Assembly (NCBI GenBank): GCA_016930085.1
Contig: JAFGHO010000067.1
Span: 1,041-65,040 of the forward strand
Source of the DNA: Spirochaetales bacterium
Lineage (GTDB): Bacteria; Spirochaetota; Spirochaetia; SZUA-6; JAFGRV01
Direction of reading: 5' to 3'
DNA: 64,000 nucleotides
The translations under genes were made by a program, and so were the position numbers. The notes below the pieces were generated by a model, which worked only from the letters and a program-made list of their open reading frames with translations, was not told the DNA's origin and ran no database searches. Shown here in pieces: positions 1,779 through 8,001 of this stretch; position 1 is the stretch's first letter; every line of letters starts with the position of its first letter.

Positions 1779-1824
1779 AGGTCCGCCGGGCGCGGTACCC
1801 GGGAATGAGGCCGTCGGGAGTTCT

Positions 1825-1853
1825 GTTGACAATTAATGTCTCTGACGGTAGTA
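1825..1853 (+). promoter_or_regulatory. Sigma70-like promoter (TTGACA-N17-TAGTAT) upstream of bactofilin
   Basis: TTGACA at 1825-1830, 17-nt spacer, TAGTAT at 1848-1853. RBS GGAGGAGG follows at 1861-1868, then ATG at 1877. Confidence 0.35.
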
Positions 1854-1876
1854 TAGTTGCGGGAGGAGGAAAACGT

Positions 1877-2254
1877 ATGCTTGAAGTAAGGATAAAAAAG
1901 GTCGAGGAAAACAATATCGATACCATTCTGGCCGACGATATCGATTTTACCGGTATGGTGAGTTTCAACAAACCGCTTATGGTAAAAGGCAAGATCAATG
2001 GTGAAATCGATGCCAGTGGAGATCTGTATATTGACGAAGGGGCGGAAGTAGAGGCGCAAATCAAGGCACATATCGTTTCCGCAAAAGGGAAAATAAATGG
2101 CAATATCACAGCGGATGCGAAGGTGGAGCTCTTTTCCACCGCCATTGTGACCGGTGACATTGTGACCCCCGAGATTGAAATCGAAAGCGGTGCGCGGTTT
2201 AACGGGAATTGTATTATGAAGGGAAGCGGACAGGGGGATAATTATGGCCGGTAG
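1877..2254 (+). CDS. Bactofilin (polymer-forming cytoskeletal protein, DUF583)
   Basis: 125 aa. Repetitive beta-helical glycine/valine pattern (KINGEIDASGDLYIDEGAEVEAQIKAHIVSAKGKINGNITADAKVEL). Strong RBS. Start chosen at MLEVRIKK. Confidence 0.75.
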   Translation: MLEVRIKKVEENNIDTILADDIDFTGMVSFNKPLMVKGKINGEIDASGDLYIDEGAEVEAQIKAHIVSAKGKINGNITADAKVELFSTAIVTGDIVTPEIEIESGARFNGNCIMKGSGQGDNYGR

Positions 2255-2873
2255 ATTGCGGAGGTTCATTCTTGTTTTCTGTTTCCTTGTTCCGATAGCC
2301 GCGCTTGCGCAGGAGAAACCCGACGCACTCGCTTTGTACAGGCAGCAGAAATATGCCGAGGCGGAAAAGGTATGCCTTGCGGAACTGGAGGAGACGCCAA
2401 AACGGCTCGATTCCTATGTCGTTTTAGTGTGGGCGCTTTTAGCCCAGAAAAAATACGAAGATGCGGCCAGATATACGGAAAAGGCACTCAAGATATCACG
2501 CTATGACAAGAGAAATATATATAGCGCCGTCGAAGCGTATTATTATCTCGGCGACAACGACAAAGCCCTGAAATATTGTGAAGAATACGTTTCCATTGCC
2601 GTTGCGGATAAAAACATAAGTATCATTTATAATTATATGGGAGAGATTTTTATACGGCTGGGCGAGTTCAACAATGCGGATATCGCGTTCTCGACGGCCC
2701 TTCACTATGACAACAAGCAGGCGGACTGGTGGGCGCGGCTGGGATACGCGCGCGAGATGGGCAAAAATTACCGGGCGGCACTCGAAGCCTATGAGAACGC
2801 GCTGAAACTCAACCAGGACCATTCGGAGGCAAAACGGGGGAAAAAATCGGTTGAACAGAAACTGGCGGAATGA
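2244..2873 (+). CDS. Secreted tetratricopeptide (TPR) repeat protein
   Basis: Signal peptide (FLVPIAALAQE). Repeated A/Y/L-spaced TPR-like helices (ALKYCEEY, EAYENALKLNQDH). Overlaps bactofilin stop by 11 nt. Confidence 0.65.
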   Translation: MAGRLRRFILVFCFLVPIAALAQEKPDALALYRQQKYAEAEKVCLAELEETPKRLDSYVVLVWALLAQKKYEDAARYTEKALKISRYDKRNIYSAVEAYYYLGDNDKALKYCEEYVSIAVADKNISIIYNYMGEIFIRLGEFNNADIAFSTALHYDNKQADWWARLGYAREMGKNYRAALEAYENALKLNQDHSEAKRGKKSVEQKLAE

Positions 2874-2963
2874 GAGTGCTTGACGGATGAGAGTGTTTGT
2901 CGGATGAAAGTGTTTGTCGGATGAAAGTGTTTGTCGGATGAAAGTGTTTGTCGGATGAAAGTG
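2871..2963. repeat. 17-bp tandem repeat, about 5.4 copies (TGA[A/G]AGTG[T/C]TTG[T/A]CGGA), ending inside the mtaB start
   Basis: Copies start at 2871, 2888, 2905, 2922, 2939 and a partial one at 2956. The last three full copies are identical. Each copy contains ATGA(A/G)AGTG; the final one provides the mtaB start ATGAAAGTG (2955). Confidence 0.9.
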
Positions 2964-4310
2964 CTGCTTCAAACACTCGGCTGTAAGGTCAATCAGGCCG
3001 AAGGCGAAGCGATTGCCTGTACGCTGCGCCGGCGAGGTATCAGCCTTGTTTCCGCAGGAGAAGAAGCGGACATCTGTGTCGTCAATACCTGTACCGTTAC
3101 CTCGAAAAGCGACCAGAAATGTCGCAGGGCCATCCGGTTCTCCGTCAAGGAGAATCCCCATGCGCTCATCATCATTACCGGATGTTACGCCGAGCTGGAC
3201 GGGCCGTATCTTTCCCGCATCGCGGAGAATGTCGTTGTCGTTCCCCAACACCGCAAGGCGGTTCTTCTCGATATGTTCGACCGTCTTCCCGTCAAAGCGT
3301 TTCTCGACGCTTCGATTGAAGAAAAAAAAGCATTCATCACCGGGTTCCTTGAAACCCGGGAAGAGCGATCTTTCACCGCGTGTTTCCGGTTTTATACGGA
3401 CGACGTTCTCCTCCACAGCAGGGCATTTCTCAAGGTCCAGGATGGATGCAGCTATCGATGTACGTATTGCAGGGTCCCGCTTGCAAGGGGCCCTTCGATA
3501 AGCCTTTCCCCGCAGGAAATAATCAGACGGATACGTTTCCTCGAGGAAAAGGGATTCAGGGAGATTGTCTGTACGGGAATCAATATCACCGACTACTGTT
3601 ATGGAAGTGAAACGCTTGTTTCCCTGTTAAAGAGGATTCTCGCTGAAGTCCGCAGCGCCCGTATCAGACTGACGTCCCTCGAACCCGAACGGATCGATAA
3701 TGAACTTGCGGATGTCCTCTCCGATACCCGTATTTGTTCCCATTTCCATCTTCCCGTACAGTCCGGTTCCGACCGGATACTCGGCGGGATGAAGCGCCGC
3801 TACAATGCGGAAAGGGTGAGGGAAACCGTCCGCCTGCTCAGGGCGGTAAAGCCGGATTGTTTTATCGGTGCGGATATAATCGTCGGTTTTCCCGGTGAAG
3901 GGGATGAAGATTTCGCGTTGACCCGGGAACTCATTACTTCGTGCGCATTATCCGCCCTGCATGTTTTTCCGTTTTCACCGAGAAAAGGAACGGAAGCCTG
4001 GCTTTTAACGCATCGCGTGAAAGCGTCGGTGGTGAAGAAAAGAGTTGCGGAGCTTCTCTCTCTCTCTAAAATCCTTTCGGATACCTATATTTCCGGCTTC
4101 AGGGGAAAAAGGGTCCGTGTCATACTTGAAAAAAGCCTTTATAATGATGATAATGGGAAGGTGATATTTCAGGGATTGTCCGACAATTATATACGGCTTT
4201 CCATCGCGGGTATTCCGGAAAAAGAGGCGGTAAGGGGCAGGCTCGCCGAGGCGGTTATCGAGAAAACCGGGGACCCGGTGAACGCACGCTTTTGCAGGAT
4301 GCTGATATGA
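2955..4310 (+). CDS. mtaB: tRNA t6A37 methylthiotransferase MtaB (radical SAM MiaB/RimO-family MTTase with TRAM domain)
   Basis: N-terminal TLGCKVNQAEGEA (MTTase N domain, MtaB-type). Radical SAM motif CSYRCTYCRVP. C-terminal TRAM-like domain. ATG at 2955; the ORF track extends to a TTG at 2931 inside the repeat. Confidence 0.75.
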   Translation: MKVLLQTLGCKVNQAEGEAIACTLRRRGISLVSAGEEADICVVNTCTVTSKSDQKCRRAIRFSVKENPHALIIITGCYAELDGPYLSRIAENVVVVPQHRKAVLLDMFDRLPVKAFLDASIEEKKAFITGFLETREERSFTACFRFYTDDVLLHSRAFLKVQDGCSYRCTYCRVPLARGPSISLSPQEIIRRIRFLEEKGFREIVCTGINITDYCYGSETLVSLLKRILAEVRSARIRLTSLEPERIDNELADVLSDTRICSHFHLPVQSGSDRILGGMKRRYNAERVRETVRLLRAVKPDCFIGADIIVGFPGEGDEDFALTRELITSCALSALHVFPFSPRKGTEAWLLTHRVKASVVKKRVAELLSLSKILSDTYISGFRGKRVRVILEKSLYNDDNGKVIFQGLSDNYIRLSIAGIPEKEAVRGRLAEAVIEKTGDPVNARFCRMLI

Positions 4311-4668
4311 CCGGGCGGCGCCTGTTGCAGTAGGACCGGGAAGGGAATCACTGACGGTGGAAGAGAAAAAAATAACGGGGAAGGGTGAAATTTTGGATTT
4401 TTATGGAAAAAGAGATATATTGTTTATTAGAAGGATGTACGGCCTTCTCGCTGATTTATAATGTCATAACAAAAACAAAGGGGAAGTGATGCTCGGGATG
4501 AAGAAGTATGGCCGGCAACGGGCGGTGGAAAAGCCTTGCCTGCCGGAGTCGGAGGTTTTTTTCAGGATCGGGCGTGCATACTGAAAAAAATACAAACGGA
4601 AAGAGGCAACCCTGAAACGGGAAAGATGAACGATCGGATGGCAGAGGACGTCGAGGAGGATGAATGAG

Positions 4669-5874
4669 ATGGATAAGATGATTAATATGTTGAAATATAT
4701 TATACTATTCAGTATGTTCATGCTGGTGGCTGGCGTATATTCTTTTTCACAGGATGGGGGTCCGGTGAGTAAACAGCCGCCCTTTCTTCCCGTCAATCCG
4801 GCCGTCATGGCCCAGGGAGGGGCCTTTACCGCCGATGCAAACGGATACAATTCACTTTTTTATAATCCCGCGGGGTTTGCCGTCGGGGACGGAGGTCTTA
4901 CCATTGCCTCAATTACCCCGTGGGGCTACTCTGATCCTTTTACCCTGATGACGCTTCATCACAGTTCGAGTGTAAGTGCCGACCGCCTGCTGACCGACCT
5001 TGTTTCTTCGGGCGGATACGGGGGCGGCTATGCCGGGCTGATCAGTTTCGTCAAGGCGGGGCTTGGCATCGGTGCTGCATTTGTTTTCGATTCGTATCTT
5101 CACGGGAATGAAGAGTTGACACAGACGGACGGAAGCGTGCATATGACCCTCGGTTTTGTGCTGGGATACGCTTATTTGTTCACCTTTCCCGGATTCAGCC
5201 TCAGTATCGGGGCCGATGTCAGGCCCATGGCCCGGGTGTATGTTCCCGTTACCGAAACGCTCGCCGTGCGGCTTTTTGAAGAATATATCACGGGGGGAAG
5301 TGACGTCATCGGGGTGCTCGACAATGCGCCGGCTTTGAGCGGTATCGGTATCGGCTTTGATGCGGGACTTATCGCGGATTTCGGGATTATCAAATGCGGG
5401 CTTTCGTTCAGGGATATCGGGGGGACGCTTTTCGATTATCGTGAAAGCACGTTTGACGAAATCATGACCTCTTTGGCCGACTCGGGCGTCTTTCCCGAAG
5501 ACGCGGAGAAACCGGAGGAACGGTATATCATCCCCATGAATGTGAGTGCCGGCGTATCCGTTCATCCCGACCTCGGGGACCTGGAGGATATCGTTAAACC
5601 TGTTTTCCATCTGGATCTTCAGGATATTGTCGAAGTATTCGCCGAGCACAGGGATCCGTTACTTTTGCTTCACATCGGGGCGGAAGCGACATTATTCGAA
5701 ATATTCAGCCTCAAGGCGGGATTCGCAGGCGGTCATTTCAGTCTCGGTGCGGGTGTCAAGCTCTGGTTTCTCGATATAAATATGGCATTCTTTACCACCG
5801 AACGGGGAACAAGTGCCGGCGATGTCCCCAATTCGTGCTCTGCCATAGAAGTGGCCGCGCGGCTGGCACTCTGA
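4669..5874 (+). CDS. Putative outer-membrane beta-barrel protein (FadL/TodX-like N-terminal NPAG motif)
   Basis: Signal peptide. Motif GGAFTADANGYNSLFYNPAGFA resembles the FadL-family N-terminal NPA region. Gly/aromatic-rich alternating strands. Paralog at 6582. Several candidate ATGs at 4660-4687; RBS GAGGAGG at 4653-4659. Confidence 0.5.
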   Translation: MDKMINMLKYIILFSMFMLVAGVYSFSQDGGPVSKQPPFLPVNPAVMAQGGAFTADANGYNSLFYNPAGFAVGDGGLTIASITPWGYSDPFTLMTLHHSSSVSADRLLTDLVSSGGYGGGYAGLISFVKAGLGIGAAFVFDSYLHGNEELTQTDGSVHMTLGFVLGYAYLFTFPGFSLSIGADVRPMARVYVPVTETLAVRLFEEYITGGSDVIGVLDNAPALSGIGIGFDAGLIADFGIIKCGLSFRDIGGTLFDYRESTFDEIMTSLADSGVFPEDAEKPEERYIIPMNVSAGVSVHPDLGDLEDIVKPVFHLDLQDIVEVFAEHRDPLLLLHIGAEATLFEIFSLKAGFAGGHFSLGAGVKLWFLDINMAFFTTERGTSAGDVPNSCSAIEVAARLAL

Positions 5875-5937
5875 TTGAGGGGGTGAACGTCTCTATCTTT
5901 TATGCCGATTATGGCCGATAGAGAAAAGGAGGAACAT

Positions 5938-6558
5938 ATGGGGAAAATGAAAGCGATCATGATGGGGACGTGCGTCTGTCTTTTGCTGCTTATGCTGCAG
6001 GTCGCCTGCCAGGATCTGTATACCACCGGTATTTTCGGTTCTCTCCAGGACGACCCGAAGGACCTTTCGGACGAACGTCTGATCGATTACGGGTGGGACG
6101 CGTTGGGCACCGGTGAAAACAGCAAGATAGAAAAGGCTTTTGAAGCACTCGAAGACGCCCTGAAAGACTCCCCCAAAAATGCCGAAATGAATTACGTCGC
6201 CGCTTTCTGCGCTCTCGAACTTTCCGGCGTCACCGAAGTCATCATCAGCCAGCCGTCTGATTACACTGCCTTTAAAAACTCTCTCGATACCGCCTGTCTT
6301 ATCGACGCGGGAACATATTTCGACGCTGCTGCCGTCAATGGCGCTGATTTGAACGCGATCGATTCTTTTTTCTGCGGTACCGGAATACTTCTTAACGCGA
6401 CGGGAGGAGATTTTTCATTAATTCCTTTCGTCTTTGCGGCTCCATCGACACCGGAAGAGATAGCAGGTGTTGCTTATGCAACGGCGGGATTGACTGCAAT
6501 TAATAATGTAAACGCGGAACTGGGCTTAACGTTAATGGAATGTTTCCTTACTCCGTGA
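5938..6558 (+). CDS. Hypothetical lipoprotein (lipobox LQVAC)
   Basis: RBS AAAGGAGG 7 nt before ATG at 5938. Signal peptide ending LQVAC|QD. No recognisable domain. Sits between the two OMP paralogs. Confidence 0.55.
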   Translation: MGKMKAIMMGTCVCLLLLMLQVACQDLYTTGIFGSLQDDPKDLSDERLIDYGWDALGTGENSKIEKAFEALEDALKDSPKNAEMNYVAAFCALELSGVTEVIISQPSDYTAFKNSLDTACLIDAGTYFDAAAVNGADLNAIDSFFCGTGILLNATGGDFSLIPFVFAAPSTPEEIAGVAYATAGLTAINNVNAELGLTLMECFLTP

Positions 6559-6581
6559 TCAATAAAGCAAAGGATGTTCGT

Positions 6582-7730
6582 ATGGTAACGAGAAGACTAT
6601 TATATGCTATATTGCTGCTTTTTATTGCGGGAATCGGCAGTCTCTTTGCTTCGGGAGAAATTGAGCCCTCCCTTGTCCCCTCGAACGCCCGGTCCGCTTC
6701 TCTGGGCGGTCCGCACGCCGCTATGACGGACGACCACCGGACCATTTTCCATAATCCCGCCGGTCTGCGGACCGCGGAGTCCGGATTCCTCCTTTCCGAG
6801 TTGACCCTGCATCTGACGGGTCCGGTATTCGATGTCACGGGCGCGCTTTTGGAGGATTCGGATATCACGGAAAACTCTGAGCTTCTGGAATTGCTGACCA
6901 CCATCTACGCGGGGATGGAACTTGTCGGTCCTATCTCCTTTGCCTATATCGGGGGGGGATTCGGTTTCGGTATTTTCAACTGGGCCGATATCGAGTTTCA
7001 GACGCGCGGCTCCTACAACCTCCAGTTTTCGTTTCTGGAAAATCTCCTTCTGACGGCCGGTTACGCGTTCAGGGTTCCGATCGGAGAAACCACCCTCGAT
7101 ATCGGGGTGCAGTTGAAGGCGCTGGGCCGCGGTTCGACAACCAGTCTGATCCAGTCCGTGCTCGAAATCATGGAAACGGCGACCTCCGACCCCTTGCAGC
7201 TCCTTTTCGAAGGGGATTTTTACATTAGCAGCGGCGCGGGGCTCGATATCGGTTTGCTTTATACGATAGCCGATATTTTTTCAATCGGACTCGTTGCCCG
7301 CGACGCCTATACCCCGACCTGGCGGCTCCGCTTTGATTCACTCGAAGATTTCTCTGATCCCGCATCCGAATACGGCACCGTTCCCTGCGATCTTTCCTTT
7401 GGTATCAGGTTCGCCCTCCCCCTCGGAAGGCTACACTATTATCTCGGAGAACCGGTCCTGTATCTCGATTATACGGATATCCTCGATTTTCTCACGCACC
7501 CGGCAACTGCAAGAAACTGGTTTCTCCATCTCGGGCTGGGGCTGGAATGGCACATCCTCGATATTATCAGTCTTCGGGCCGGATTCGCGGAGGGATTGCC
7601 GGGGGCCGGACTCGGCGTTGATTTGACCTTCTTCACGATCGATGTAGCGATATTCGGGAGCGAGCTTTCAACCGAACCGTCATTCAGACCGGCCTATAAC
7701 ATGATAATCGGATTCGACTTTACACTATAA
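6582..7730 (+). CDS. Putative outer-membrane beta-barrel protein, paralog of 4669..5874 (NPAGL motif)
   Basis: Signal peptide LFASGE. Motif GGPHAAMTDDHRTIFHNPAGL parallels the upstream paralog. Ends with aromatic-rich ...IGFDFTL. Confidence 0.5.
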   Translation: MVTRRLLYAILLLFIAGIGSLFASGEIEPSLVPSNARSASLGGPHAAMTDDHRTIFHNPAGLRTAESGFLLSELTLHLTGPVFDVTGALLEDSDITENSELLELLTTIYAGMELVGPISFAYIGGGFGFGIFNWADIEFQTRGSYNLQFSFLENLLLTAGYAFRVPIGETTLDIGVQLKALGRGSTTSLIQSVLEIMETATSDPLQLLFEGDFYISSGAGLDIGLLYTIADIFSIGLVARDAYTPTWRLRFDSLEDFSDPASEYGTVPCDLSFGIRFALPLGRLHYYLGEPVLYLDYTDILDFLTHPATARNWFLHLGLGLEWHILDIISLRAGFAEGLPGAGLGVDLTFFTIDVAIFGSELSTEPSFRPAYNMIIGFDFTL

Positions 7731-7807
7731 CGGGATGTCAATCGCGGTAGTATGAGTCCTTTCAGAGAAAATGTTTAAAATAATGTGGTGAGGTCCTGTA
7801 AAAAGTG

Positions 7808-7836
7808 TTGACATGTCACGGATAAGTTGGTATATA
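7808..7836 (+). promoter_or_regulatory. Sigma70-like promoter (TTGACA-N17-TATATA) upstream of tRNA-Lys
   Basis: TTGACA at 7808-7813, 17-nt spacer, TATATA at 7831-7836. About 90 nt upstream of the tRNA. Confidence 0.35.
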
Positions 7837-7928
7837 GAACCTTGTATTATGATTTAAAAAAGCTGACCCGGGTTTTATAACAGTAACCGTAAAAATTCCC
7901 GGCACACTATATCGTTAGCAGGATAAAC

Positions 7929-8001
7929 GGGCCGCTAGCTCAGTAGGCAGAGCAACGCCCTTTTAAGGCGTGGGTCGAAGGTTCGAATCCTTCGCGGCTC
8001 A
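7929..8001 (+). tRNA. tRNA-Lys (anticodon UUU)
   Basis: Cloverleaf readable by eye. Acceptor GGGCCGC/GCGGCTC with one G-U pair. D-arm AGCTCAGTAGGCAGAGC. Anticodon loop CUUUUAA. T-arm GGTTCGAATCC. Discriminator A. CCA not encoded. Confidence 0.9.

Follow-up and report, generated by a model that had tools for sequence, protein, structure and literature searches.

A tandem array of ATGA-linked six-codon reading frames at the junction between a TPR-repeat protein gene and mtaB in a Spirochaetales bacterium

The closest described counterparts of the element analyzed here are the mycobacterial interspersed repetitive units (MIRU), reportedly described by Supply et al. in 1997. The element itself is a tandem array of a 17-nt unit that fills the interval between a gene coding for a tetratricopeptide repeat (TPR) protein and mtaB, the gene of a tRNA methylthiotransferase, in the metagenome-assembled genome (MAG) of a Spirochaetales bacterium. 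It is located in a stretch of 64,000 nt (positions 1,041 to 65,040 of contig JAFGHO010000067.1, assembly GCA_016930085.1), which as a whole is called here the window and to which all positions refer. MIRU are units of 40–100 bp, often tandem and located in operon junctions, 12 of 41 MIRU loci are polymorphic in copy number, and the function proposed for them is a 'differential translation within a polycistronic operon' (PMC12548453, PMC3184786, PMC2734929). Each MIRU has an open reading frame (ORF) coupled to the gene that follows it at a distance of -4 nt, an arrangement that 'likely' keeps the impact of the insertion to a minimum (PMC12548453).

The array works like MIRU but is not MIRU. Like MIRU and the MIRU-VNTR (variable number of tandem repeats) loci, it consists of head-to-tail units placed between co-directional genes of an operon and in the same orientation as these, and each unit holds a small ORF with -4 nt junctions, of the coupled type, both to the adjoining ORFs and to the gene downstream. 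In both cases the units are thought to be tolerated as coupling is kept, and the corresponding junctions of relatives are short and 'empty'. There are also differences. The unit has 17 nt and six codons instead of 40–100 bp, and the host belongs to the Spirochaetales and not to Mycobacterium. Besides, MIRU are dispersed, apparently mobile and present at tens of loci per genome. The 5' half of the array unit appears to have been copied from mtaB, which points to a local origin, and the array has no second locus in the 64 kb. To our knowledge, mycobacteria, with their MIRU, are the only group in which this design has been described.

Two other known arrangements are close to what we have found. 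Overlaps of the types ATGA and TGATG couple translation by termination-reinitiation, a premature upstream stop abolishes downstream translation in most of the Escherichia coli pairs tested, and the pattern of Shine-Dalgarno (SD) usage of spirochaetes is the same as that of E. coli (Huber et al., 2019; PMC6728339). Coupling is best at distances of -4 to +3 nt and largely gone past about 30–40 nt (PMC12548453). All six junctions of the array are canonical ATGA overlaps, and most relatives have an overlap of one of these two types, ATGA or TGATG, at the orthologous boundary of the TPR gene and mtaB. However, the known cases involve a single junction between two full-length genes (PMC6728339), while here there are six in series and the ORFs are shorter than a ribosome footprint. 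The other precedent is the short upstream ORF (uORF) coupled to a second gene, to which it can 'deliver' a ribosome (PMC12548453). In uORFs of this type, mycobacterial or part of synthetic bicistronic designs, a non-functional short ORF overlaps the start of the real gene and supplies ribosomes, as the last ORF of the array would do. The mycobacterial examples are said to come from the work of Shell et al. in 2015. In contrast to them, the short ORFs found here are in tandem and would be fed by the upstream gene, and not by an SD of their own or a leaderless start.

The array and its chain of mini-ORFs

According to Tandem Repeats Finder, the array occupies 2870-2963 and has 5.5 copies of a 17-nt period without indels, with 96% matches and a score of 160; the next-best tandem array of the window reaches only 44. 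All its elements are on the + strand and fill exactly the interval from the TPR stop to the mtaB start (the sequence of 2860-2980 is ctggcggaATGAgagtgcttgacggATGAgagtgtttgtcggATGAaagtgtttgtcggATGAaagtgtttgtcggATGAaagtgtttgtcggATGAaagtgctgcttcaaacactcggctgtaag). Copy 1 (starting at 2870, ATGAGAGTGCTTGACGG) differs from the consensus at three positions and copy 2 (2887, ATGAGAGTGTTTGTCGG) at one, while copies 3, 4 and 5 (2904, 2921 and 2938) are perfect (ATGAAAGTGTTTGTCGG). The partial last copy (2955-2963, ATGAAAGTG) has 9 nt and corresponds to codons 1–3 of mtaB. The perfectly 17-periodic run goes from 2892 to 2963 (72 nt), the copy number of this part being assembly-dependent. An earlier note on this DNA, made from the letters alone, had described the repeat, its unit and its limits, with the TPR stop inside the first copy, the mtaB ATG supplied by the last partial one, and the first two copies diverged and the last three perfect. 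Both Tandem Repeats Finder and the alignment of the copies in register bear this description out. When the unit was searched for with up to 3 mismatches, five matches were found in the window against 0.20 expected, and none of 100 shuffles reached five. No copy outside the array was detected at this threshold in the 64 kb. The unit was likewise absent from the related and other non-viral loci searched (L001-L166), with the exception of the organism's own contigs.

Read in the register of its ATG, each unit has the form ATG-NNN-NNN-NNN-NNN-GGA followed by TGA, and this TGA overlaps the following ATG. Since 17 is 18-1, the frame of every unit is closed in this way, and the five units are thus five closed ORFs of six codons, called mini-ORFs hereafter. 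Mini-ORF 1 (2870..2890, + strand as all the others) reads ATG AGA GTG CTT GAC GGA TGA and codes for MRVLDG*; its ATG (2870-2872) is overlapped by the TGA of the TPR gene (2871-2873). Mini-ORF 2 (2887..2907, copy 2) codes for MRVFVG*, and its ATG overlaps the TGA of mini-ORF 1 in an ATGA. Mini-ORFs 3 (2904..2924), 4 (2921..2941) and 5 (2938..2958) are perfect copies, all coding for MKVFVG*, and the TGA of the last one (2956-2958) overlaps the mtaB ATG (2955-2957). From the TPR stop to the mtaB start there are, in consequence, six ATGA stop/start overlaps in series. For the same reason, the period of 18-1, the gain or loss of whole units leaves every frame, and likewise the sequence immediately around the mtaB start, as it was. 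A likeness of MRVFVG and MKVFVG to the pentapeptide mini-genes of macrolide resistance (MRLFV) was considered and dropped; no support for it was found in the papers searched, and MKV is the N-terminus of MtaB.

The earlier note had left room for an assembly artefact, and we give almost no credence to this possibility. When the TPR and bactofilin proteins and two downstream proteins were looked up by exact identity, all of them were found in two contigs of an independent assembly (Logan, k=31) of one and the same sample, run SRR13394437; the MtaB protein itself had no exact match in the contig index. The two contigs correspond to 1-2921 and 2934-7974 of the window, with no mismatches. The left one (L164) ends with copy 1, copy 2, copy 3 and one more base, and therefore contains mini-ORFs 1, 2 and 3. 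The right one (L165) opens with tcgg and one perfect copy, that of mini-ORF 5, followed by ATGAAAGTG. Mini-ORF 4 is present in the MAG assembly only, because the Logan contigs break there. Each of them has exactly 30 nt (k-1) of periodic sequence at the end where it breaks in the array, which is how a de Bruijn graph behaves when a real repeat exceeds k+17, and this indicates that the array and its diverged edge copies are present in the reads. Both flanks are recovered in this way, along with the two diverged copies and, on either side, one perfect copy, and diverged copies are not made by assembler loops. What does speak for the assembler is the length of the perfect run, in which the number of copies rests on the MAG assembly since the Logan contigs break inside it. 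Its 72 nt equal 55+17, the minimum output of an assembler with K=55 after one pass through an unresolved 17-nt loop (the lengths allowed by the phase being 55, 72, 89, etc.), so the number of perfect copies is maybe the assembler's choice. The figure of 5.5 copies may therefore be a lower bound, to be read as 'at least'.

Orthologous junctions and the origin of the unit

No relative with an MtaB identity above 66% was present in a collection of 5.8 billion proteins, and a scan of contigs with MtaB was dominated by the generic motif GCKVNQAE and retrieved only distant phyla (33–40% identity). The two nearest species (L001/L002 and L003) have TPR proteins 75–78% and MtaB proteins 64–66% identical to those of the window. 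In both of them the order bactofilin-TPR-mtaB-404-aa ORF is kept, and the order of the bactofilin-TPR-mtaB block is also found in the organism's own contigs L164/L166. Their TPR-mtaB junction is a plain caATGAaag overlap (gcacaATGAaagcgg and tcacaATGAaagccg). When nucleotides 2874-2958 (85 nt, i.e., 5x17) are removed from the window, the resulting junction (ctggcggaATGAaagtgctgctt) is colinear with those of L001 and L003, both in DNA and in protein. The TPR C-terminus EQKLAE* is then colinear with EQMLAQ* of L001, and the MtaB N-terminus MKVLLQTLGCKVNQ aligns with MKAALYTQGCKVNQ of the relatives.

To have a wider sample we scanned metagenomes with an alignment of the TPR protein, which provided 80 loci (L084-L163); together with L001-L003, they gave 60 non-redundant junctions in which the TPR gene and mtaB are adjacent. 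The genes overlapped in 36 of the 60 (by the -4 overlap in 18, the -1 overlap in 11 and longer overlaps in 7). In the remainder, the gap was 0 to +10 nt in 14 cases, +11 to +30 in 7 and larger than +30 in 3. Many of the -4 junctions are of the form cggATGAgag, the same context found at the internal unit boundaries of the array. A comparable array was found at none of the 60. These comparisons of sequence indicate that the array is, in all appearance, a lineage-specific tandem expansion placed exactly on a former ATGA overlap of the TPR gene and mtaB. We regard this anatomy and ancestry, an expansion of ATGA-linked mini-ORFs, as nearly certain.

Part of the unit can be traced. The consensus unit and mtaB share their first 9 nt (ATGAAAGTG), and in copy 1 ten of the first 11 nt match. 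The end of the unit, CGG before ATGA, resembles the end of the TPR gene, GCGGA before ATGA. The unit was found nowhere else in the window or in the loci searched, and this, together with the match to mtaB, indicates a local origin. The part clearly derived from mtaB is the 5' one, ATGA(A/G)AGTG(C), whose local origin is supported by the data. The three identical inner copies and the diverged edges suggest a recent expansion or homogenisation, of which they are the usual pattern.

Small repeats were observed at or near the same junction in other genomes. In L092 (3563-3591) there is an independent perfect 14-nt duplication (x2.1, GCGGGTAGGACGCC) across the TAG stop of the TPR gene, with a gap of 64 nt to mtaB and no overlap. 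Small tandem duplications at the TPR-mtaB junction have thus arisen more than once. L142 has a 7-nt repeat (x3.1, TGTGCGA) in the TPR-mtaB spacer (3610-3632), and a 10-nt array (x6.0, 98% matches, TCGCAAGTTA) at the end of the locus (5211-5270). An unrelated MAG of the Thermodesulfobacteriota (L080, 1219-1330) carries a near-perfect 15-nt array (x7.5, score 203, CTGCCCCCGGCTCGG) upstream of mtaB, which may be coding because its period is a multiple of 3.

Proposed translation across the array

We consider it reasonably probable that the array acts as a termination-reinitiation relay, by which the translation of mtaB stays coupled to that of the TPR gene; both the translation of the mini-ORFs and the passing on of ribosomes are what we infer from their arrangement. 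Ribosomes ending the TPR gene would start again at the ATG that overlaps its stop and, after six codons, terminate and reinitiate at the next one, and this cycle of short translation and reinitiation would be repeated five times until the mtaB ATG is reached. In this way mtaB would remain coupled over an insertion of 85 nt. Coupling being largely lost beyond ~30–40 nt, an untranslated insert of this length is expected to uncouple mtaB; as an untranslated spacer the 85 nt would largely abolish coupling, while the mini-ORF form would hold each step at -4 nt. Only periods of the class 3n-1 would leave a clean chain, given that a period of 3n would extend the MtaB N-terminus and one of 3n+1 would put the ribosomes out of frame. 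The most likely history of the array is that of a near-neutral insertion that survived because its period class keeps coupling. MtaB output would fall if ribosomes were lost at each step, or rise if further ribosomes were captured de novo at each ATG and passed on downstream, and the effect is probably a modest quantitative change scaling with copy number.

The relay competes with the view that the mini-ORFs are unused and that the array is only an untranslated or structural spacer, either RNA structure or inert DNA, with mtaB uncoupled and initiated on its own (de novo or from a standby site). We judge this unlikely. It is true that in E. coli the overlapping pair bioBF is uncoupled despite a weak SD, so that independent initiation without a good SD is possible (PMC6728339), and that the gaps of more than 30 nt at 3 orthologous junctions indicate that an uncoupled arrangement is tolerated in the clade. 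However, we found no SD-like motif at working distance before the mtaB ATG 2955, nor before any mini-ORF ATG, and only cgg adjoins the ATGs. The earlier note had pointed to a GGA just upstream of each start; this is present, but it directly adjoins the ATG (-3 to -1), a spacing at which an SD does not function. Furthermore, a ribosome that stops at the end of the TPR gene is placed on an ATG whose context is that of the ancestral junction, and it would be hard to explain why it should not reinitiate there.

Regarding a structural role, the RNA of the array can pair with itself (minimum free energy of -33.2 kcal/mol for 2862-2990). Nevertheless, the predicted folds were not significantly better than those of shuffled sequences (z=-1.46 for 2840-3010, -1.71 for 2862-2990 and -0.07 for 2930-2990). 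In each unit the motif AGTGTTTG (e.g., at 2943-2950) is complementary over 8 nt to CAAACACT at 2970-2977 (mtaB codons 6–8), a pairing that would put the mtaB ATG in a hairpin loop. Despite this complementarity, RNA structure was rejected as the primary explanation given the comparison with the shuffles. A search of the array against Rfam (E-value mode) assigned it to no family, with two chance matches to snoRNAs of ~20 bits against gathering thresholds of 47–60, and a known RNA family was accordingly discarded. No intrinsic terminator was detected in or beside the array. A leader-peptide attenuator or regulatory uORF element was thus also discarded, in view of the lack of a terminator-like site, of a significant fold and of an Rfam family.

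The copy number itself could be the object of selection. In an adaptive, hypervariable 'rheostat' similar to MIRU-VNTR, slippage or unequal recombination would shift the number of units, and the variants would be selected for a graded ratio of TPR to MtaB translation. Three identical adjacent copies with diverged edges are the usual sign of recent or ongoing expansion and contraction, whole-unit changes leave the chain intact so that variants would be viable, and the length of a repeat upstream of fpg in Mycobacterium tuberculosis correlates with fpg expression (PMC2734929). We still find this rather doubtful, as the organism was found in one sample only (SRR13394437) of the collections searched, an equivalent array is present at 0 of the 60 orthologous junctions, so that there is no sign of recurrent selection, and there is no obvious reason why a housekeeping enzyme such as MtaB should need heterogeneity in the population. 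In a related scheme, a 'resistor ladder', each six-codon ORF would pass on a fraction of the ribosomes, and the number of units would set the output of MtaB relative to the upstream gene in graded, heritable and reversible steps; to this we assign only a small chance. The second codon of every mini-ORF is AAA or AGA, that is, an ANN codon. ANN codons are read by tRNAs with t6A37 or ms2t6A37, and the latter modification we take to be the product of MtaB itself. An autoregulation of MtaB through these second codons is pure speculation.

Simple-sequence contingency loci are responsible for phase variation in Neisseria, Haemophilus, Helicobacter and other bacteria. The array resembles them in being a tandem repeat that adjoins the start of a gene and could change in length by slippage, and the earlier note had read it as the architecture of such a phase-variable locus, or alternatively as a means of translational tuning of mtaB. 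In the first case the slipped-strand gain or loss of units would switch mtaB on and off through the frame or through the spacing to a ribosome-binding site (RBS) or a promoter. A head-to-tail repeat with perfect internal copies directly 5' of a start codon is what such a locus would look like. The details do not fit. In the note, upstream starts out of frame were expected from a unit length not divisible by 3, but the units are closed ORFs, and a change by whole units alters no frame and no ATGA junction. Each unit brings the same upstream context, so that the spacing to the mtaB ATG stays constant and no RBS spacing is altered. As for promoter spacing, no sigma-70-like promoter was found in or beside the array, which is inside a tightly packed operon (the nearest promoter-like matches on the + strand are at 1826-1854 and 3495-3523), and the model based on it was rejected. 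Contingency loci have short hypermutable units, from homopolymers to ~8 nt, whereas here the unit has 17 nt; a radical-SAM tRNA methylthiotransferase with a housekeeping function is an equally atypical target. We therefore see a classical ON/OFF locus as very improbable, while a translational tuning of mtaB is possible.

Several points weigh against the relay, or at least against reading too much into the chain. The unit copies the junction only imperfectly: a clean single 17-nt duplication across it was tried and rejected, the best model leaving 5/17 mismatches to copy 1, and the origin is explained only in part. A period of 3n-1 has a prior of ~1 in 3, for which reason the intact chain alone is statistically uncompelling. 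All 4 substitutions in copies 1 and 2 spare the ATGA and make no stops, but this would happen by chance under neutrality with P ~0.34. Purifying selection on the chain is thus not evident from these substitutions, and we have rejected them as evidence of it. Six serial reinitiations could strongly lower MtaB instead of preserving it. The role of the SD in reinitiation differs strongly between gene pairs (PMC6728339), and the absence of an SD is therefore no proof of a dependence on coupling. Finally, the array is known from one genome and one sample, with a copy number that has possibly been under-called.

Flanking genes, similar chains and significance

The array is preceded by two genes on the + strand. 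The first gene of the bactofilin-TPR-mtaB block (1805..2254) codes for a bactofilin (Pfam PF04519, E=1.1e-27), and its end overlaps by 11 nt the start of the TPR gene (2244..2873), which has an SD-like GGGGGA at -11 to -6. The TPR protein (209 aa) matches several TPR families of Pfam, e.g., TPR_2 with E=4e-16. Its N-terminus, as read from the sequence, is signal-peptide-like, so the coupling of the TPR gene to mtaB is not obviously for the stoichiometry of a complex. mtaB (2955..4310, + strand) codes for a tRNA ms2t6A methylthiotransferase of 451 aa with the Pfam domains UPF0004 and Radical_SAM. UPF0004 aligns from residue 2 to 93 with positions 1–93 of the profile, followed by the Radical_SAM domain, and this fit from residue 2 indicates that ATG 2955 is the true start. 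The protein is 100% identical to MBN1698210.1 of NCBI, from a Spirochaetales MAG, which is annotated with the same start. The list of ORFs places the start of this frame at a TTG inside the array (2931, ORF 2931-4310), and the gene call on the Logan contig (L165, 1-1377) gives a product of 458 aa that reaches the contig edge. Both are artefacts, because the frame is open across the last 1.5 units. An antisense ORF of 306 aa that spans the array (2496-3416, minus strand) was treated as spurious, given that Pfam gave nothing for it at E<=1 and that both genes it overlaps are well supported. Elsewhere in the window, the G+C content drops to 0.42–0.43 between 28001 and 36000, compared with 0.45–0.55 in the rest, and this segment may be foreign or atypical.

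We have also searched for similar chains in viral contigs, by scanning for five ATGA motifs at a spacing of 17 or 14 nt. Among the matches listed there were at least 309 chains of four or more units, at least 178 of them intact mini-ORF chains, and two chains, in L203 and L396, run from the stop of an ORF of 80 aa or more to the start of another. The one in L396 was rejected as an analogue, being a 7-nt microsatellite with implausible flanking ORFs. The other is found in the phage contig IMGVR_UViG_2061766007_002087 (L203, 450-521, minus strand) and consists of four perfect 17-nt units (ATGAGGACATCTACGAT), each coding for MRTSTI* and ATGA-linked. It goes from the stop of an ORF of 139 aa (518-937) to the start of one of 105 aa (136-453) within a tight co-directional gene series; neither flanking ORF had a match in PHROG. 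The architecture is the same as that of the array, while the sequence is unrelated and the source viral. No other mini-ORF array between genes was found in 955 kb of non-viral DNA. The design of a mini-ORF chain is thus rare but recurs.

Neither phase variation nor a special biology of MtaB is indicated on present evidence. At a practical level, arrays of this kind mislead gene callers and break short-k assemblies. For the study of translation, the array is a natural construct in which the per-step efficiency of termination-reinitiation, and the part played in it by 30S versus 70S ribosomes, could be addressed. If the number of units did set the output of MtaB in the manner of a resistor ladder, the array would be a minimal non-mycobacterial counterpart of MIRU-VNTR and a natural system for serial termination-reinitiation. 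If the relay is true, its units of six codons each would be the smallest natural repeat units to enter an operon junction with coupling kept, and this outside the mycobacteria. The suggested general rule is that tandem duplications at ATGA junctions would survive preferentially when their period is of the class 3n-1.

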